This document shows positions 5,613-13,855 of a stretch of 24,000 bases of DNA, in pieces. A program made the translations under genes and the position numbers. Under the pieces are notes generated by a model that worked only from the letters and a program-made list of their open reading frames with translations, made no database searches and had not been told where the DNA came from. The DNA comes from an uncultured beta proteobacterium. GTDB lineage: Bacteria; Pseudomonadota; Gammaproteobacteria; Burkholderiales; Burkholderiaceae_C. Where the stretch lies: the NCBI GenBank assembly GCA_963751775.1, contig CAVVVW010000014.1:1-24000 (forward strand), in the 5' to 3' direction. Positions within the stretch are counted from its first letter, which is position 1. Every line of letters begins with the position of its first letter.

Positions 5613-5616
5613 TGAT

Positions 5617-5700
5617 GTCTAACGGTTGACACGAGGTGCGGGCGACAGCTGGTGGAGCAAGCAGTTGCACGTCCCCTCGATGGAACGGCCAGGGCTAGGC
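5617..5700 (-). other. attC site (84 nt) of the cassette ending with the phosphatase gene
   Basis: Minus strand: TGA-GCCTAGC(R'')-ccctggccgtt-CCATCGAG-gggacgtgcaactgcttgctccaccagctgtcgcccgca-CCTCGTG-tcaacc-GTTAGAC(R', a perfect GTTRRRY match). CATCGAGG pairs with CCTCGTG, leaving one extrahelical T. R' lies 4-10 nt upstream of the next start. Confidence 0.65.
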
Positions 5701-6258
5701 TCAGTACGGCTCAAACGGAATATCCGCCTTTCGGAGCTGGGACACCAGCAGGCTCTTCCATGGGCCCTGCGGCGACCAGACTTGTGCGACCGATTCATAG
5801 GCTTGCTCCGGCTTCTCGCGACCGACGATGACGCGGTACAGGAACGTCATGCTAGAGGCGCGCATGTTGACCTGGCAATGGACGAGGACCTTGCGATCGC
5901 GAAGTCTGTCCATGGCGGCGACGAACGACTGGAAGTCGGTCTCCGTCGGATCTCCGAACTTGATCGGGATGTTCGTGAACTCAAGACCTTGCTTGCGAAC
6001 GATGTCTGCTTCACCCGCAATGGCATCTGGCACCGTGGGTGGCGCCAGGTAGATGACTGCCTGAAACCCCTGTGCTGCGAGACCAGAGAGTGCCTCCGCC
6101 GTCGGTTGACCCGACGTGACCAGCCGTGGCGATATGGACACGACGTTCGGTGCGTCGAGGACTTGACCGGCCGCGAGCGCACTCCCACACAAAGCAAGCG
6201 CGGTGACAAGCGCGAGCGCTGCCGCGGCGTGCCTATGGATGTGTGCAGCGATGCGCAT
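5701..6258 (-). CDS. secreted PTP-superfamily (DSP/DUF442-like) phosphatase-like protein, 185 aa
   Basis: Signal-peptide-like N-terminus (AAAALALVTALALCGSALAAG). The motif ...KVLVHCQVNMRASSMTFLY resembles the HC(X)nR(S/T) P-loop of Cys phosphatases, but the spacing read here is C-X4-R rather than C-X5-R. Confidence 0.65.
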   Translation of the reverse strand: MRIAAHIHRHAAAALALVTALALCGSALAAGQVLDAPNVVSISPRLVTSGQPTAEALSGLAAQGFQAVIYLAPPTVPDAIAGEADIVRKQGLEFTNIPIKFGDPTETDFQSFVAAMDRLRDRKVLVHCQVNMRASSMTFLYRVIVGREKPEQAYESVAQVWSPQGPWKSLLVSQLRKADIPFEPY

Positions 6259-6281
6259 CCCGTGGGCCCCAAGGCTTCAAC

Positions 6282-6698
6282 TTACGCCCGGCGAAGATTC
6301 GCATCGGGAACACGCCGCGACAGCCACAGAAGATAGGTGCCGACGACCGCATCGACCACGAAGCAGAACACGGGATACCAAACCGGAACGCCAGTGTTTG
6401 TGATGAGCTGGCTGTGTACCAGGTCGTACAGCCCGTGCAGCAGCCAGAATGCGCCGACCACGACGGCCGACTGGCGGACGCTGACAAAAGCGAAGACAAG
6501 GCCGGCAACGACGTACGGCGCGCCGTAGATCATCTCCTTGACGCCCACGGCCGGCTCGCCTGCCTGCAAAGCGAAGAACGCGTAGAGGCCAGGCAGCGTG
6601 AGCAGGCCCAACGCATACAACCAACGTTCGCCACGAATGAATCGCGCGGTCACGATCGTGAGAACACCAACCGCCGCACCGATAAGTGCCTCGATCAC
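6282..6698 (-). CDS. hypothetical 4-TM membrane protein, 138 aa
   Basis: VIEALIGAAVGVLTIVTARF...AFWLLHGLYDLVH... GTG 6698-6696 is preceded by GAGGAG (6 nt spacer). It overlaps the upstream stop as GTGA (6695-6698). Confidence 0.65.
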   Translation of the reverse strand: MIEALIGAAVGVLTIVTARFIRGERWLYALGLLTLPGLYAFFALQAGEPAVGVKEMIYGAPYVVAGLVFAFVSVRQSAVVVGAFWLLHGLYDLVHSQLITNTGVPVWYPVFCFVVDAVVGTYLLWLSRRVPDANLRRA

Positions 6699-7562: not shown

Positions 7563-7614
7563 GATGTGCTTCGCCGTTTGGAGGTGCGTGCGCGGGGGGC
7601 GACGTGATCGCGTG

Positions 7615-8094
7615 TCAGTAGGGAAGGCAGTTCTTGTGAACGAATTTCCACGTCCCGTCGACAAACAAGGCTTTGAGGTCGTCGTCTGGATAACTCCCTA
7701 CGTCTCCCGGCGTTCTATCGCCGACCTCGAGGTAAACAACCTCTTCCGAGGTTTCGTTCATCAGACGGTGACCATTCCCCGTTCCGGCTTTGAAGCCCGC
7801 GCACATGCCTGGCGCCAGGCGAGCGAGACCTTCGTCGGTATGCAGTGTGGGGTGGCCTTGCAGGATGTAGATGAACTCATCCTGCTTGGTGTGGGCGTGG
7901 CGAAGGGCTGAGACCGCACCAGGTTCGAGGCGCGTGAGGTTGACGCCGAAGTTGGTGAGACCGAAGAGATCGCCGAGCGGATGCTTCTGCCTGCCGGACA
8001 TGCGAGAGGCGAACGGCTCGGGGTAACTTGAAGGCTTGACGCGCTTGGGCGCTTCGGCAGCCGTGACCACGGTTGGGTAGGAGTTCTTTGCCAT
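7615..8094 (-). CDS. cupin domain protein, 159 aa
   Basis: ...GVNLTRLEPGAVSALRHAHTKQDEFIYILQGHPTLHTDEG...LAPGMCAGFKAGTGNGHRLMN is a cupin two-motif core. The ATG at 8094-8092 was verified. Confidence 0.85.
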   Translation of the reverse strand: MAKNSYPTVVTAAEAPKRVKPSSYPEPFASRMSGRQKHPLGDLFGLTNFGVNLTRLEPGAVSALRHAHTKQDEFIYILQGHPTLHTDEGLARLAPGMCAGFKAGTGNGHRLMNETSEEVVYLEVGDRTPGDVGSYPDDDLKALFVDGTWKFVHKNCLPY

Positions 8095-8138
8095 GTGAAG
8101 CTCGCGAAGTAGGGCAATGAGGGCTGACGTTTGCCCAT

Positions 8139-8477
8139 TCACTTGGATTTCTTCGCCGGCAAACCGGCCACGTAGCCCACGCACCAGGACACCCACGCCA
8201 GAAGGTCTCGGTCTTCGGCCAACCCCGGTGGGTCGATGTAGACGTAGCCTTTCATCGGTTTGCCGGTGAACTTCATCTCACGCACGTGGGGAAGAGCCAA
8301 GGCATCTTCATATCGCTCGGCGCCCACGCGTGCCATGAGGCTCGCGCCCGATATGCCTACGAACATCTTGCCTTCGACGAGGAATGCGAGCCCGCCGAAC
8401 ATCCTGCGCTCCGACACGAGTTCCCGACCGGCAAGCGCCTCTCGAACACGTTGAGCAAGACCTTCGTCGAATGCCAT
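8139..8477 (-). CDS. TfoX/Sxy N-terminal domain protein, 112 aa
   Basis: MAFDEGLAQRVREAL...ERRMFGGLAFLVEGKMFVGI... is TfoX_N-like. Confidence 0.85.
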   Translation of the reverse strand: MAFDEGLAQRVREALAGRELVSERRMFGGLAFLVEGKMFVGISGASLMARVGAERYEDALALPHVREMKFTGKPMKGYVYIDPPGLAEDRDLLAWVSWCVGYVAGLPAKKSK

Positions 8478-8483
8478 GTTGAG

Positions 8484-8499
8484 CTGCCTAGCTGCCTAG
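8484..8499. repeat. perfect 8-bp tandem duplication ctgcctag x2 at the R' end of the MAPEG attC
   Basis: Read directly: 8484-8491 equals 8492-8499. On the minus strand it duplicates the core-like CTAGGCAG. Confidence 0.9.
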
Positions 8500-8552
8500 A
8501 CGTTGAATTTCAGCCGCCGCCGGAACAGGCCCGCTCGAGCGAGGCCTTAGGC
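8495..8552 (-). other. attC site (~58 nt) of the MAPEG cassette
   Basis: Minus strand: GCCTAAG (R'', 8552-8546, contains the TAA stop)-gcct-CGCTCGAG-cgggcctgttccggcggcggctgaaat-TCAAC-GTCTAGG (R'-like). GCCTA pairs with TAGGC. The TCGAG box and the TCAAC-GT junction are shared with the attC sites at 5617 and 8977. Confidence 0.5.
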
Positions 8553-8942
8553 CGCACCCGCCGCGCGGGAAAGACACCAGACGCCAAACCCGAGCATCGG
8601 TACAAAGGTGAGGATCATTCCGATGGCGCGGGGAAGGCCCCAACCCTTGAGGATGAGTATGGCCGCATGCATGACGCGACCGACGAAAAGTGATGCTCCG
8701 CCAGTCCACAAGAGCCATGCTGGGGCCCCCGTGAGTTCTGCGGCCGCCATTGCCAGCAAGACGATCGGGACAGTTTCCGTGTAGTTTCCGTGCGCCCGCA
8801 TGCGACGCAAGAGCGTCTGGTCGCCGCCGTCAAAGAATTGAATGCCCGTGCGTGCCCGCCTATAGCCAACCATCACGGTGAGCGGAATCTGCAGCACAGC
8901 GAAGGTACCAATGAACAGGGTCGAGGTTGGGATGCCGATCAT
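8547..8942 (-). CDS. MAPEG family membrane protein, 131 aa
   Basis: ...LQIPLTVMVGYRRARTGIQFFDGGDQTLLRRMRAHGNYTETVPIVLLAMAAAEL... is MAPEG-like (RAHxNxxEYxP-type motif). Confidence 0.85.
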   Translation of the reverse strand: MIGIPTSTLFIGTFAVLQIPLTVMVGYRRARTGIQFFDGGDQTLLRRMRAHGNYTETVPIVLLAMAAAELTGAPAWLLWTGGASLFVGRVMHAAILILKGWGLPRAIGMILTFVPMLGFGVWCLSRAAGAA

Positions 8943-8976
8943 GTTTGTACCTCAGTGAGGAGGAGATTGAATGTGT

Positions 8977-9049
8977 GGCCAACGTTCGACGTGAGCCGCA
9001 GCAACAAGCATGCGAAGCGTGCTTGTTGCTGTCGGCTCGATGGAGTGGT
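8977..9049 (-). other. attC of the first (GNAT) cassette, L''-to-R' part, separated from its R'' box by the group II intron
   Basis: Minus strand: ACCACT-CCATCGAG-CCGaCAGCAACAAGCA-cgcttcgca-TGCTTGTTGCTGCGGCTC-ACGTCGAAC-GTTGGCC (R', 8983-8977). A long imperfect hairpin spans 8994-9037 with one extrahelical base and a central GCGAAGC mini-hairpin. Confidence 0.7.
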
Positions 9050-9624
9050 GTGCGCCCAGCATGGGCGCGAACTTATGGGGTGCAAGTCCCCTGTGGGAGT
9101 ACCGACTTGGACTCATCGTGAGCAAGGATAACCACGAGCCGACGGCAAGGGCAAGACCGCGAGGTATTGTCTGGAGGAAGCCCGAGTGCAAGAGGTGCGA
9201 GGCGACGGACAGAAACCGCATACAAGGCCGAGGGCTGCGAGGCGAGCTGGCACATGACAGCAAAGCCCAGCGGTACGCAGCCTACGGTAAATGCGGCGCT
9301 TGTGCACCGACAGTTCGCGTCCCTTACCTGGGGAGATCTGCACCGCGAGCGGTGCGCGTCGATGGTGGCAAAACCCGGATGGTTCACACCGGGACACCAA
9401 GAACCGAGCGCCGCGGCGAGCTGCCCGCTGCGAGCGATGAACAGGCAGCAACCACCATCGAAGCGCACAGCGCGGCACGCGGCAACGCGCGACGTGACGG
9501 CGCAGAAGTCAGCAGACGCCGTAGTAGGCGGCCGGGAGTCGGGCCGCTGAAGGGCTGAACAACAGAGACACAAGGAGCAGACGTTGCCGACCTCGAACGC
9601 ATCGACCAAGCCCGACCGGGCGAG

Positions 9625-10904
9625 ATGCGCGCGGCGGCCGGCACGCACCGAGCCTTGAGACAAGACGAAGCAATCACTGAAGACCTGCTGCAAGCGGTGC
9701 TGGCCAGCGACAACCTGGCGCGGGCGTGGAAACGGGTGAAGGCCAACCGGGGAGCGCCGGGCATTGACGGCGTGACCATGCAGGACTGGCCCGCCCATGC
9801 GCGCGACACACTGGCCGGCGTTGCGAGCGCAGATCGAAGGCAAGGGCGATACCGGCCGCAGGCGGTGCGAAGGGTGCGAGATACCCAAGCCCGACGGCGG
9901 CAAGCGGCATGCTCGGAATTCCCACGGTCACCGACCGTGTGGTCCAGCAAGCCATCGCCCAAGTGCTCACGCCGATCTTCGATCCGACATTCTCGGAATC
10001 GAGCTTCGGGTTTAGACCGGGCCGCAATGCACACCAGGCGATCAGGCAGGTGCAGGCGAGCGTGAAGGCCGGCTGGCGCATCGCGGTGGACATCGACCTG
10101 GCCAAGTTCTTCGACACGGTCAATCACGACGTGTTGATGAGCTTGCTGGGGCGAACGATCCGCGACAAGCGACTGCTGGCTCTGATCGGGCGCTACCTGC
10201 GCGCCGGGGTGCTGGTCGGTGAGCACATCGAACCGAGCGAGGTGGGCACGCCGCAAGGCGGGCCACTGCGCCCATTGCTGGCCAACATCCTGCTGCACCA
10301 GCTCGACCGCGAGTTGGAACGGCGGGGCCACCGCTTCGCGCGCTACGCCGACGACATGATCATTCTTGTCAAGAGCCGACGCGCCGCGCAGCGGGTCATG
10401 CGCAGCATCACGCGATACCTGGAGACGACCCTCAAGCTCACGGTCAACCCTGCCAAAAGCAAGGTCGCGCCGATGAGCGAATGCAGCTTCCTGGGCTTCA
10501 CCATCCAGGGCAAGAAGATTCGCTGGACCGACAAGTCGGCGGCGGAATTCAAGCACCGGGTGCGTGAGCTGACGGGGCGAAGCTGGGGCGTATCGATGGA
10601 CCACCGGCTGCACAAGCTGGGGCAATACCTGCGGGGCTGGACGGCGTACTTCGGCATCAGCCAGTACTACCGCCCGGTGCCCGAACTGGACGACTGGATC
10701 AGGCGACGCATCCGCATGTGCTACTGGAAACAGTGGCGCTGGGTGCGCACGAAGATCAAGCACTTGCTGGCTTTGGGCGTGAGCCTGAAGACGGCGATCC
10801 AGCATGGCGTCAGCAGCAAGAGCTATTGGCACATGGCGCGAACCCCGGCGCTGCAGCAGGCACTGTCCAACGCGTGGTTGAAAGCGCAAGGCTGGTCAGC
10901 GTGA
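9625..10904 (+). pseudogene. group II intron reverse transcriptase/maturase (no endonuclease domain evident), disrupted by four frameshifts in the RT0-RT1 region
   Basis: Frame 1 gives ...LLQAVLASDNLARAWKRVKANRGAPGIDGVTMQDWPAHARD. Frame 2 gives HWPALRAQIEGK. Frame 1 gives GRYRPQAVRRV. Frame 2 gives EIPKPDGGKR. Frame 0 (ORF 9909..10904) gives MLGIPTVTDRVVQQAIAQVL...RYADDMIILV...(X/maturase)...SNAWLKAQGW. The span is 1280 nt (426 codons + 2), consistent with +1, -1, +1, +1. Confidence 0.8.
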
Positions 10905-10978
10905 AGGACAGTGGTGCAAGGCCCAGGGCTACACCACTTGAAGGAACGAACGCTTCGTCGAGCGAGCCGACTTGTTGA

Positions 10979-11047
10979 ACCGCCCACTGCGGACCCGCAC
11001 GGTGGGTGGTGTGGGGGCTGGGGGTCAGAAACCCCCGGCTACCCGAT
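10979..11047 (+). ncRNA. group II intron domains V and VI
   Basis: DV (10979-11010): CCGCCCAC/GTGGGTGG outer helix, TGCG-GACC-CGCA inner helix and tetraloop, and a 2-nt CG bulge on the 3' strand. DVI (11013-11044): GGGGG/CCCCC helix with a bulged A at 11041, 7 nt from the 3' end. Confidence 0.7.
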
Positions 11048-11541
11048 TAGAGCGCATCTGCACCGAGCGCCCGCGCCGGCAGCCAACAGGCCATGCGAGT
11101 GACTTTGCACCCACGGCGCGTGAACTGGCCGGAAATTGGAAAGAAGCCCAATGAGCGGTAAGCGTTCAAGGCGTGCGGCGTGGAGTTGAGCTCAACGGTC
11201 TTCACTTCCGGGAACACCTCTTCTATGTGAGCGCGCGCCGCCTCCCACAGACCTCTGGCCACACCCCGACGCAGATGCCGTGGATGCACAAAGAGCATGC
11301 TGATCAGTGACGGGCGTGGCATAAGGATGAAGCCAACGACCTGTTCTCCTGAAACTTCGGCAGCGGCGAAAGCCGGAGCTTTCAGGAGTTCTGCCATTGC
11401 CTCGGGAGACGTCTCAGCAAGAAGCCGTTCGCTGGCACTCGGCTCCCAGTCAGCTGCGGCCAGTTCACTGAAGCTCTCGTGCACGAGCCGGGAGACTGCC
11501 ACTGCCATCTCTGACGTCGCGGTAACCAGTGTTCGGCTCAT
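11047..11541 (-). CDS. GNAT family N-acetyltransferase, 164 aa (first integron cassette)
   Basis: ...VVGFILMPRPSLISMLFVHPRHLRRGVARGLWEAARAHI...ELNSTPHALNAYRSLGFFP shows the GNAT motifs. The TAA stop lies in the attC R'' box and is regenerated at the intron junction (TA from the exon; the final A comes from intron nt 11047, or from 9049 if the intron is removed). Confidence 0.85.
   Translation of the reverse strand: MSRTLVTATSEMAVAVSRLVHESFSELAAADWEPSASERLLAETSPEAMAELLKAPAFAAAEVSGEQVVGFILMPRPSLISMLFVHPRHLRRGVARGLWEAARAHIEEVFPEVKTVELNSTPHALNAYRSLGFFPISGQFTRRGCKVTRMACWLPARALGADAL
11048..11054 (-). other. R'' (inverse core) half of the first-cassette attC (restored sequence CTCTAAC), split by the intron
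   Basis: The minus strand reads GCGCTCTA | (intron) | ACCACTCC. The insertion point on the intron strand is GGAGTGGT/TAGAGCGC. Confidence 0.7.
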
Positions 11542-11544
11542 GCG

Positions 11545-11553
11545 CTCTAACTA
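11545..11553 (-). other. attI/first-cassette recombination core (minus strand TA-GTTAGAG) immediately upstream of the GNAT ATG
   Basis: The minus strand reads ...(IS)cacTAGTTAGAGCGCATG. GTTAGAG fits GTTRRR. It is the reverse complement of the R'' CTCTAAC of the same cassette, as expected for a circularisable cassette. Confidence 0.65.
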
Positions 11554-12660
11554 GTGGACTGTAACGTTTAAATAGGAAGTATCATCGTGCCTGTGGAGGG
11601 CGCGATGGAACTGACCAAGACCGAACTCATGGAACTGCAGCGACAAGCCAGTGCGAGGAACGGTCGAGCCGATGCGGCGCGACACGCTCGACTGATCCTG
11701 CTGTTGGCCGATGGACTGACGTGGGCCGAGATTCGCGCCAAGCTCGACTGCAGCGACAGCTACATCGATCGCTGGAGCAAGCGCTTTGCCGCCGATCGGC
11801 TGGCCGGACTGTTTGCTCGCCATGCTGGGCGCGAACGCTACAAGGTGACCGATCGCGTCGAGGCGCGCGTGCTGGCCCGCACCACCAAGCGCAAGCCCGC
11901 CGACGGCTCGACGCACTGGTCCTCGCGCAAGCTTGCCGCCGAACTCGGCGGCGACATCTCGCACATGACCGTGGCACGCATCTGGGCCAAGCATGGCATC
12001 AAGCCGCATCGGCTCGAGGGCTATCTCGCCTCCAACGATCCCAGACTTCGAGGCCAAGGCCGCCGACGTCATCGGGCTGTACCTGAACCCGCCGCAGCAC
12101 GCCGCAGTGTTCAGCGTCGATGAGAAGACGGCGATCCAGGCGCTGGACCGCAAGGATCCGGTGCTGCCGTTGTCGCCCGGACGCGCCGAGCGTCATGGGT
12201 TCGAGTACTTCCGACACGGCACGCTGTCGCTGTACGCGGCCTTCAACACCAAGACCGGCGAAGTGCTCGGCAAGACCGCAGCCCGCCACACCTCGGCCGA
12301 GTTCGTGGCCTTCCTCACCGACATCGTGGCCAACCAGCCTCGCGGCAAGGAGATCCACGTCATCGCCGACAACCTCTCGGCGCACAAGACCAAGCAGGTC
12401 GACGCGTTCCTGACTGAGCATCCGCGACGTTCATATGCACTTCACCCCGACCTACTCGTCCTGGCTCAACCAGGTCGAGCTGTGGTTCGCCAAGATCGAG
12501 CGCGACGTGATCGCCCGCGGCGTGTTCACCTCCGTGCCAGACCTCAAGCGAAAACTCATGCGCTACATCCGTCAATACAACAAGCAGCCCAAAGCCCGTG
12601 AAGTGGAAGTACTTCGATCCCACACGGCGCATCACTCCCGATTCAATCGTTACGGCCCAC
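11554..12660 (+). mobile_element. IS630-family insertion sequence (1107 bp) with a TA target duplication in a CTAG site
   Basis: Terminal inverted repeats are GTGGACTGTAACGTTTAAAT (left) and GTGGGCCGTAACGATTGAAT (right, reverse complement), 16/20 identical. TA is present at 11552-11553 and 12661-12662. Removing the IS restores aaCTAGat. There is a single transposase gene. Confidence 0.85.
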
Positions 12661-12663
12661 TAG
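11605..12663 (+). pseudogene. IS630 family transposase (HTH plus DDE), interrupted by three +1 frameshifts
   Basis: Frame 1: MELTKTELMELQRQ...THWSSRKLAAELG...PHRLEGYLASNDP. Frame 2: DFEAKAADVIGLYLNPPQHAAVFSVDEKTAIQAL...IHVIADNLSAHKT...FLTEHP. Frame 0: HFTPTYSSWLNQVELWFAKIERDVI...YNKQPK. Frame 1: VKWKYFDPTRRITPDSIVTAH*. Shifts lie near 12044, 12428 and 12595. 1059 nt = 352 codons + 3 extra nt. Confidence 0.85.
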
Positions 12664-12813: not shown

Positions 12814-13855
12814 ATGGACGACCAACACGACTCCCCCGCTGCCGAGCCGCCCGGCGCCACTCCCGCGGCCGTCGATCGCCCGTCGCTTCAGCCGCCGGTA
12901 CGCCTGTTGCCGGCGCTTCGCGAGGCGATCCGGGTGCGGCACTACTCGCTGCGCACGGAGCAGGCTTATGTCGGCTGGGTGCGCCGCTTCGTGCACTTCC
13001 ACGGCTTGCGCCACCCGCGCGAACTCGGTGCACCCGAGGTCGAGGCGTTCCTGACGCAACTGGCCAGCCTGCGCAATGTGTCGTCGTCGACGCAAGGCCA
13101 GGCCAAGTCGGCATTGCTGTTCCTGTACAAGCAGGTGCTCGGCATCGAGTTGCCCTGGCTCGACGAGGTCGTCTCGGCCAAGGCTTCGCGGCGCTTGCCT
13201 GTGGTGCTGACGCCGCGCGAGGTGCGCGAGTTGCTGCTCAACCTCGAGGGCGGTACGGCAGGCTTGGTCGTGGCGTTGCTCTACGGCACCGGCATGCGCT
13301 TGCTCGAAGGCTTGCGCCTGCGCGTCAAGGACGTCGAATTCGAGCGCCGGGAAATCATCGTGCGCGAAGGCAAGGGCGGCAAGGATCGTGTGACCGTGTT
13401 GCCCGAGAACCTGATCGCGCCGCTGCGCGGCACAGCTCGAGCTGGCGCGCGAGTGGCATCGCAAGGACGCGGCTGCCGGTCGCGCCGGCGTGTGGCTGCC
13501 CGATGCGCTGGCGCTCAAGTACCCCAAGGCCGCGACGGCGTGGGGCTGGCAATGGGTGTTCGCCAGCCCCACGTTGTCGATCGACCCGCGCAGCGGCGTC
13601 GAACGGCGCCACCACCTGCACGAGCAATCGGTTCAGCGCGCGGTGGCCGGCGCCGCGCGCCGCGCCGGCATCGACAAGCCCTGCACGCCGCACGTGCTGC
13701 GCCATTCGTTCGCCACCCACATGCTGCAGCAGGGCTACGACATCCGCACCGTGCAGGAGCTGCTCGGCCACAGCGACGTGAAGACGACGATGATCTACAC
13801 CCACGTGCTCAACCGCGGCGGGCGCGGCGTGATGAGCCCGCTGGATCGGATCTGA
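12814..13855 (+). pseudogene. intI: integron integrase IntI (tyrosine recombinase with the IntI-specific insertion), one +1 frameshift near 13427-13431
   Basis: The N-terminal frame gives ...[30 protein letters not shown]...[21 protein letters not shown]...[25 protein letters not shown]. The next frame gives [66 protein letters not shown]...[37 protein letters not shown]. The ALxxKYPxA...W.WVF...DPRSG..RRHH block is the IntI hallmark. 1042 nt = 347 codons + 1. Confidence 0.9.

Follow-up and report, generated by a model that had tools for sequence, protein, structure and literature searches.

A group II intron, probably of the IIC-attC lineage, in the attC site of a GNAT cassette of an environmental betaproteobacterial integron

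Class C group II introns generally insert after stem-loops (PMC7923331). One lineage, IIC-attC, is defined by its target: these introns enter the bottom strand of the attC recombination sites of integrons at the R'' box, with the consensus TTGT/T (intron-binding sites IBS1/IBS3), and lie antisense to the gene cassettes (PMC7923331, PMC3001079). Chromosomal hosts have been tabulated in Geobacter, Nitrosomonas, Desulfurivibrio, Accumulibacter and Shewanella (PMC3001079); Nitrosomonas europaea and Candidatus Accumulibacter phosphatis are hosts of such introns in integron arrays (Table 3 of PMC3001079). Domain I of these introns holds outward promoters at about positions 76-106, and the P1out promoter of N. 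europaea (TTGCCC-18-TATACT) is active in E. coli (PMC3001079). Here we describe an intron in contig CAVVVW010000014.1 (assembly GCA_963751775.1) of an uncultured beta proteobacterium; the window is the whole stretch analysed, 24,000 nt long. With a probability of roughly 0.9, the element at 9050-11047 belongs to the bacterial class C group II introns and, within them, to the IIC-attC lineage, in a betaproteobacterial sub-group that includes the N. europaea intron, and was reverse-spliced into the R'' box of an attC site.

The intron lies next to a gene for a GNAT acetyltransferase. An exact-protein look-up with the product of this gene led to two other contigs, L001 and L002, and we compared the window with these and with three further loci, L003, L004 and L005. 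The features of the insertion are:

9050-11047, + strand: probable class C (IIC-attC lineage) group II intron, 1998 nt, GTGCG...CCCGAT, from Rfam and boundary comparisons
8977-8983, - strand: attC R' box, GTTGGCC on the cassette strand and GGCCAAC on the + strand, crossover point between the GNAT and MAPEG cassettes
8993-9038, + strand: central imperfect hairpin (L boxes) of the attC bottom strand, about 46 nt, inverted repeat I2, with one extrahelical T at 9032
9046-9049, + strand: IBS1, the final four bases of the 5' exon, TGGT in the window and TTGT in L004 and at the empty site L001
11048-11052, + strand: start of the 3' exon, TAGAG, with T11048 as IBS3
11047-11541, - strand: GNAT acetyltransferase gene of cassette 1 (Pfam Acetyltransf_10, E = 5.5e-20), with an identical protein in L001 and L002

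The first bases of the intron, from 9050, are GTGCG, and its last, up to 11047, are CCCGAT. The intron occupies the R'' box (CTCTA/AC; here and below a slash marks a joint or insertion point) of the attC site of the GNAT cassette, on the + strand and antisense to the - strand cassettes. The GT at 9048-9049 and the TAGAG at 11048-11052 together make GTTAGAG, the complement of the R'' sequence CTCTAAC. When 9050-11047 is left out, the joined exons read GCGCTCTAAC/CACTCCATCGAG...GTCGAAC/GTTGGCC, and the predicted ligated exons across 9049/11048 are GGAGTGGT-TAGAGC. The restored attC bottom strand folds as DNA with -27.7 kcal/mol (z = -5.66), and none of 200 shuffled sequences was equally stable. 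The stop codon of the GNAT gene, TAA (11047-11049, - strand), takes in the final base of the intron; at the empty site, where the intron is lacking, the codon still reads TAA.

That empty site is L001. Its GNAT gene is 99.6% identical in nucleotides to that of the window and is followed directly by GCGCTCTAAC/AACTCCATCTAGCC...GTCAAAC/GTTGAG, so that the locus is intron-free and colinear with the window minus 9050-11047. Past the GTT of R' the two sequences are unrelated, the divergence beginning exactly after GTCAAAC/GTT, and the L001 integron has a different, intact intI (encoding a 360-aa integrase) without nucleotide similarity to the intI of the window. The exchange points of the cassettes lie at GTT on both sides of the GNAT cassette in L001, and the MAPEG cassette is found behind another attC in L003. 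A GNAT cassette common to unrelated integrons indicates recent cassette exchange between different integrons, and L001 thus supplies the empty site and, at the same time, shows GNAT with this attC to be a mobile cassette. Between L001 25-2762 and window 11047-11551, the GNAT cassette and its attC are shared, and L001 has another cassette upstream; downstream it carries transposase genes matching DUF772 and IS21-type domains (rve/Mu-transpos_C_2, IstB_IS21).

The same site is occupied in L002, which has the arrangement of the window (the end of an IS630-family element, GNAT, intron), and in L004, where the intron's 5' end is joined to the MAPEG cassette. L003 carries the MAPEG cassette with the same GTTGGCC behind a different attC. 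The intron of L005 is 96% identical and sits in a different attC: homology to the window begins at ...GGT/GTGCG and stops at CCCGAT/T, and joining the exons produces GTTGGGC, a further R'' complement (site GT/TGGGC). Near-identical introns are thus found in two different attC sites, those of the window and L005. We set the boundaries from the empty site, the two same-site copies (L002 and L004) and the other-site copy; a formal one-base ambiguity of the ends is settled by the GUGYG...AY rule, and the comparison fixes the intron at 9050-11047. An earlier, sequence-only reading had described an element on the strand opposite to the cassettes, whose removal restores R'' beside a 44-nt imperfect hairpin with one extrahelical base, and a GNAT TAA kept with or without the intron. 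This picture agrees with the strands observed, with the mapped boundaries, with the fold and with L001, in which the flanks are contiguous, R'' is whole and the TAA is present. The comparison shows an antisense insertion into a GNAT cassette that already existed and that comes first in a chromosomal integron. The three states (an intron-free cassette, the same insertion in independent samples and a near-identical intron in another attC) amount to a natural before-and-after record of retrohoming into R''.

All the hallmarks of a group II ribozyme are present in the element: a 5' GUGYG, a conserved core of domains I to IV, a domain V, and a domain VI whose bulged A lies close to the 3' AY. The conserved parts are:

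9153-9321, + strand: domain I core, match to the full Rfam model group-II-D1D4-3 (117.8 bits, E = 6e-24)
9471-9555, + strand: base of domains III/IV, match to Rfam group-II-D1D4-1 (62.7 bits, E = 2.6e-9)
10979-11010, + strand: domain V, 13 pairs, 2-nt bulge A10999-C11000, triad C10981-G10982-C10983
11012-11045, + strand: domain VI, with unpaired branch-point A11041, the seventh base from the intron end

RNAalifold recovered domains V and VI from 35 related introns, with compensatory changes in 11 of 24 pairs (5 in domain V, 6 in domain VI); the G.U pair of the domain V triad was invariant (35/35). The 3' end also forms two hairpins when the window sequence is folded singly. The sole two differences in domain VI between the window and L002/L005, G11023/C11033 versus A/T, form a compensatory pair. 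In class C introns the catalytic triad of domain V is CGC rather than AGC, as in the Oceanobacillus iheyensis intron. The 1998-bp extent, the GTGCG start, the 2-nt bulge of domain V and the bulged A of domain VI, 7 nt from the end, had all been proposed from the letters alone and are confirmed. The Rfam models gave a divided answer: group-II-D1D4-3 and group-II-D1D4-1 match, and RF00029, the model for domains V and VI, found no match in 8800-11300 even in a permissive search (E <= 1). Because RF00029 likewise misses the introns of N. europaea, L005 and Ectothiorhodospira, and matches the class 1 integron intron only, the missing match is a property of the sub-lineage and not damage.

The intron carries one open reading frame (ORF):

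9625-10941, + strand: reverse transcriptase (RT)/maturase ORF with RVT_1 and GIIM and no endonuclease (En) domain; seven frameshifting insertions or deletions (indels) in the window

An intact allele of the intron-encoded protein (IEP), 437 aa long, is found in L002 and L005, and its only domains are RVT_1 and GIIM. It scores 418 bits against TIGR04416 and, against solved class C RTs, 469 bits (GsI-IIC) and 395, 296 and 293 bits (E. rectale and R. intestinalis), versus 135 bits for TeI4h (class IIB) and 134 bits for LtrA (class IIA). Among the matches listed from species-representative genomes, the nearest named relatives are in Polaromonas (82% identity), N. europaea (79%), Dechloromonas (79%) and Ca. 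Accumulibacter (80% and 69%). A protein search gave at least 7999 relatives at E <= 1e-30 (the best 8000 candidates being scored), the best listed at 82-91% identity, and at least 579 related stretches were confirmed in species-representative genomes. In a neighbour-joining (NJ) tree with two class C proteins (GsI-IIC and the E. rectale RT) as outgroups, the window IEP falls in a betaproteobacterial clade with N. europaea and also Accumulibacter (bootstrap 100), and the clade including the class 1 integron intron excludes both outgroups in 80 of 100 replicates. The assignment to class C and to its attC-targeting sub-lineage, made earlier from the sequence, holds: the IEP groups with accepted IIC-attC members. 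The same reading had called a copy in a chromosomal integron uncommon, which overstates the matter: a 2010 table already lists six or more chromosomal hosts, and hundreds of relatives occur in environmental genomes.

The closest described system is N.e.I1, from the chromosomal integron of N. europaea (AL954747). Its IEP is 79.5% identical and shares the clade of bootstrap 100. In both introns D1D4-3 and D1D4-1 match and RF00029 does not, both have the 3' end TACCCGAT and a GT/TAG target, and the P1out of N. europaea has a putative homologue in the window, placed alike and sharing its -35 hexamer and the length of its spacer, 18 nt. They differ in the -10 hexamer (TATCCT in the window versus TATACT in N. 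europaea), in host and cassette, and in the disrupted ORF of the window. S.ma.I2 and the other IIC-attC introns of class 1 integrons resemble the window intron in lying antisense to the cassettes, in targeting the attC bottom strand at R'', and in an IEP with RT and X domains and without En. The IIC-attC intron likewise occupies the first cassette in S. marcescens, E. coli and K. pneumoniae (PMC3001079). One class 1 example lies between aadA1 and qacEdelta1 on the P. putida plasmid NZ_MF564290.1, and its IEP is 58% identical to that of the window; the plasmid relatives at this identity include the array aac(3)-If / blaVIM-2 / aadA1 / antisense intron / qacEdelta1-sul1. Class 1 integron introns are plasmid-borne in clinical integrons, whereas the window intron is in an environmental and apparently chromosomal integron, and RF00029 matches the class 1 copy but not the sub-lineage of the window. 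The class C RTs of GsI-IIC and Eubacterium rectale (6AR1, 7UIM) have the same architecture and class and lie outside the attC-type clade in the NJ tree; to our knowledge, neither intron has been reported to target attC sites. Lineage, target, orientation, presence in chromosomal integrons and outward promoters had all been published by 2010, and the locus opens no new question. It adds one well-documented IIC-attC intron in an environmental betaproteobacterial chromosomal integron.

We located the exon-binding site (EBS) that would recognize the target by scanning the columns of domain I in 43 introns:

9252-9255, + strand: EBS1, ACAT, in the 8-nt loop 9250-9257 of the hairpin 9246-9261, placed by covariation with the exon end

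No other stretch pairs as well, in antiparallel orientation, with the four bases that end the exon; the average is 3.58 of 4 pairs. The combinations were:

EBS1 ACAA with IBS1 TTGT, 22 introns
EBS1 CAAT with IBS1 TTTG, CTTG or ATTG, 7 introns
EBS1 ACCA with IBS1 TGGT, 1 intron
EBS1 ACAC with IBS1 GTGT, 1 intron
EBS1 ACAT with IBS1 GTGT, 1 intron

IBS3, the first base of the 3' exon, is T in 43 of 43 relatives. A strict regular expression (RYYYAAC/GTTRRRY) proved too strict to be useful on the flanks of the relatives, and we used a position logo instead. Among the 34 relatives whose ends could be mapped cleanly, G, T and T never vary at -2, -1 and +1, T predominates at -4 and -3, and +2 to +5 read A/G-G/T-G-C/T, the R'' complement, giving NNGT/T-RRRY overall. 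The window site reads TGGT/intron/TAGAG, the empty site L001 reads GGAGTTGT/TAGAGC, and L004 too reads GGAGTTGT/T. This site, the bottom-strand position and the antisense orientation agree with the way in which the lineage has been defined (PMC7923331, PMC3001079). The difference is position 9047, which is G in the window and T in L001 and in L004 (99.9% identical over 2.4 kb), making the IBS1 of the window TGGT instead of TTGT. A sub-group with CAAT or CAAA as EBS1 (L058, L061, L065, L068, L070, L071, L073 and L075, mainly metagenome-assembled genomes (MAGs) of Oceanispirochaeta) has several copies per genome and inserts one base earlier (YTTG/TTAT), at the G/TT crossover position of the integrase. 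The covariation between EBS1 and IBS1 across the clade, this sub-group included, could aid the design of attC-targeting experiments.

From what is established for endonuclease-less class C introns, insertion would proceed as follows. The intron RNA and the RT/maturase would form a ribonucleoprotein that recognizes the folded single-stranded attC bottom strand, the hairpin taking the place of IBS2. The exon end NNGT would pair with the EBS1 loop at 9252-9255 and the next T with EBS3, and the RNA would reverse-splice between the GT and the T of the R'' complement; copying into cDNA would be primed from host replication intermediates or primers. Being antisense, the intron would not be transcribed from the cassette promoter. 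The GNAT attC should no longer be able to fold as a recombination site, because its R'' is split by the intron. The antisense intron of about 2 kb, together with the IS630 element, parts the promoter side from the downstream cassettes, for which an outward promoter may compensate:

9154-9125, - strand: positional homologue of P1out, TTGCCC (9154-9149), 18 nt, TATCCT (9130-9125), facing the MAPEG cassette

This candidate differs from the N. europaea P1out by one -10 base and one spacer base, and it may transcribe the MAPEG cassette.

The coding part of the intron is disrupted in the window. The RT/maturase ORF has five inserted bases (9806, 9839-9840, 9878 and 9910) and two deleted bases (after 10889 and after 10908), and its reading frame switches six times (3-1-3-1-2 between 9790 and 9910, 2-1-3 near 10890-10910); one more deletion lies at 10950, outside the ORF. 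The sequence-only reading was right that the RT/maturase has no endonuclease domain, RVT_1 and GIIM being the only domains, but it missed the frameshifts. The window and L002 compare as follows:

GNAT and flank, 539 nt: 0 differences
ribozyme, domain I to domain IVa, 434 nt: 3 differences
ORF, about 1.3 kb: 70 differences

What divergence there is between the two copies falls in a stretch of the ORF of about 1.1 kb (window 9778-10904, 5.3%), the ribozyme differing by 0.7% and the flanks by 0%, and the ORF of L002 is nearly identical to that of L005, despite the different attC and genome. Divergence confined to the ORF suggests recombination among intron copies, or chimeric short-read assembly via the shared ribozyme ends. 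Several of the inserted bases are the base of the alternative allele beside a substitution. We found no intact copy of the window allele in other records: a search of 5.8 billion proteins with the repaired protein gave a best match of 91%, two exact-pattern scans of metagenome contigs gave 0 matches, and an exact look-up of the 331-aa ORF of the window found it not on record. As recorded, the copy could move only with protein supplied in trans, because the ORF is broken while the ribozyme is intact. Generally poor sequence quality was rejected as the cause of the frameshifts: where the window sequence is unique, independent contigs reveal hardly any indels (none over 1656 nt and none over 2432 nt, 2 over 1526 nt and 1 over 3351 nt).

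Are the frameshifts real? We lean towards errors in the assembly consensus of a repeated element rather than real decay. Indels aside, the ORF resembles a constrained natural allele: its codon changes relative to L002 are 32 synonymous and 20 non-synonymous, 17 of the 20 residues that differ are frequent among family members, and some are the consensus residue there. The ribozyme and the flanks are as conserved as listed above, seven indels without matching neutral substitution make an odd spectrum, and the indels occur in multi-copy elements only, the places where consensus errors from collapsed or mixed reads accumulate. The scarcity of indels in the unique regions, the inserted bases that match the alternative allele, and S214R, which at the DNA level is a deletion and an insertion 5 nt apart, also favour an artefact. 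We thus read the window sequence as a natural second ORF allele overlaid with indels; these may be of very recent origin, but we hold consensus errors to be somewhat likelier. The opposite reading, on which we would bet slightly less than evenly, is that of a fossil copy with a dead RT/maturase, stranded in a decaying integron and immobile unless complemented in trans, and it too is compatible with IIC-attC identity. It draws on the seven frameshifting indels, at every one of which all seven close relatives keep the frame, and on two changes, V52M and S214R, seen in none of 124 relatives; S214R hits the invariant Ser of GGPLSPLLAN. The clean unique regions also count for it, since they mean that the sequence is not generally poor. 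Moreover, the single-copy intI is frameshifted as well, L005 retains IntI 238-345 only, the IS630 transposase carries three +1 frameshifts (frames 2-3-1-2), IBS1 is weakened by the T to G change at 9047, and frameshifted IIC-attC copies have been reported in other assemblies (PMC7923331). A further version, which we regard as a long shot, takes the frameshifts as real and the ORF-dead intron as kept for the outward promoter of its ribozyme region, domesticated as a donor of that promoter within a chromosomal integron that is fixed and decaying. If that were true, the IS630 element and the 2-kb antisense intron would cut the cassettes off from the integron promoter, P1out would drive the block led by MAPEG, and the ORF-limited 5% divergence at one locus would reflect recombination among intron copies. 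For annotation, the frameshifts of the RT/maturase, the IS630 transposase and intI need a read-level check before any of them is labelled a pseudogene.

The identity of the intron was weighed against two other accounts. An ordinary terminator-targeting class C intron, from outside the attC lineage, might have landed by the attC hairpin by chance, since class C introns in general insert after stem-loops (PMC7923331). Such an origin fits poorly with an insertion inside R'' at the canonical GT/T, with a sister copy in another attC R'', and with a clade-wide target logo that is the R'' complement and not a terminator T-run. The protein tells the same way: its nearest named relatives among the matches listed are published IIC-attC introns, and the clade with N. 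europaea has bootstrap 100, although the GsI-IIC RT (53% identity) is just modestly farther than the class 1 integron intron (58%). An IntI-like match lay within 4 kb at only 6 of 80 related loci, which might be counted for chance landing but says little, arrays being long and many contigs short. We rejected chance landing on the target logo and the NJ tree and consider it very improbable. The second account makes the locus an intermediate of cassette genesis, in which an attC-less GNAT gene was joined to an attC by recombination between two intron copies. This model has been published for the lineage (Leon and Roy, as summarized in PMC7923331), and the sequence-only reading had raised such a role; the 5.3% divergence of the window and L002 ORF tract between identical flanks could reflect inter-copy recombination. 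It is not supported at this locus: the same GNAT plus attC, with GTT crossovers on both sides, stands uninterrupted in L001, in an unrelated integron with an intact intI. Because L001 carries the uninterrupted cassette, the attC belonged to GNAT before the intron arrived, and we rejected the genesis account, which we find scarcely credible.

Several points nevertheless weigh against our reading of the intron. The EBS/IBS pairing, to which the sequence-only reading had pointed, was borne out in part: EBS1 could be placed at 9252-9255 by covariation, but the ACAU of the window pairs with just 2 bases of its own IBS1, UGGU (3 with the UUGU of L004 and L001). In the IIC-attC lineage IBS1 and EBS1 form 3-4 bp and IBS3 and EBS3 1 bp, and EBS2 is lacking. 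The RT/maturase ORF is not intact in the window, and BLAST against the first 120 homologues found no intact copy of its allele. Just two class C outgroups went into the NJ tree, and its deep node reaches 80% support. A generic sigma-70 scan of 8900-9700 called no promoter, so that P1out was found by homology only, and the homologue matches 8 of 12 consensus positions. Finally, splicing and mobility of the window copy are predictions from its sequence.

Around the insertion, the window contains an integron with the following further features:

8547-8942, - strand: MAPEG-family gene, first gene of the next cassette (Pfam MAPEG, E = 3.6e-20)
11552-12663, + strand: IS630-family element at the attI/cassette junction, with TA duplications and terminal inverted repeats (Pfam HTH_32 and DDE_3)
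12814-13855, + strand: intI, integron integrase gene, divergent from the cassettes, with one inserted base near 13428

After removal of the inserted base (context CTGCGC-G-GCACAG), intI matches TIGR02249 with 465.9 bits (cut-off 265) over positions 2-315 of 315. The remnant in L005, at 6109-6432, covers IntI residues 238-345, and the integrase seems to be decaying in the lineage of the window and L005. L005 is a 91-kb contig of an uncultured betaproteobacterial MAG. Because its genes past intI (HTH, LysE, TetR, EamA and ABC-2) are 94-96% identical to those of the window, the data are consistent with a chromosomal location of the window integron.

The IS630 element has the inverted ends TAGTGGACTGTAACG and CGTTACGGCCCACTA and directly abuts the GTTAGAG that opens the GNAT cassette. 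Its match to NCBIfam transpos_IS630 (E = 5.8e-21, 75.2 bits, below the curated 100-bit cut-off) comes from a 178-aa N-terminal ORF and spans profile positions 1-127 of 299. About 150 nt separate its right end (12663) from the start of intI (12814). Because the GTTAGAG boundary abuts the attI side, with only IS630 between it and intI, the layout supports GNAT as the first cassette. The earlier claims of a first-cassette position and of an array physically split by the intron agree with this layout of GTTAGAG, IS630 and intI. L002 has the first 35 nt of the IS630 element, which shows that this insertion is present in another sample too.

The other - strand genes, in the same orientation, encode TfoX-N, cupin, CZB, DUF2784, PTP-like, glyoxalase, DJ-1/PfpI, another GNAT, and GFA proteins, and the genes of the array are small and cassette-like. 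The cupin label comes from the precomputed Pfam Cupin_2 match of the L003 and L004 homologues, the window ORF itself (7761-8138) having no Pfam match. A scan for further attC sites by regular expression and hairpin gave one dubious match only; reading the gaps by eye, we found a plausible attC-like site at 5615-5700 (GTCTAAC ... GCTAGGC). The attC after MAPEG (8478-8546) is degenerate, with an R''-like CCTAAGG, an R'-like GTCTAGG and a weak hairpin. The TfoX and cupin genes abut without an attC (7600-8200), and several further gaps of 24-58 nt are too short for one. Over much of its length the array resembles cassettes that have fused or become fixed. At its far end, near the GFA and glyoxalase-type genes, a 30-nt direct repeat (1479-1508 and 1940-1969) is 90% identical between its two copies, which lie 461 nt apart.

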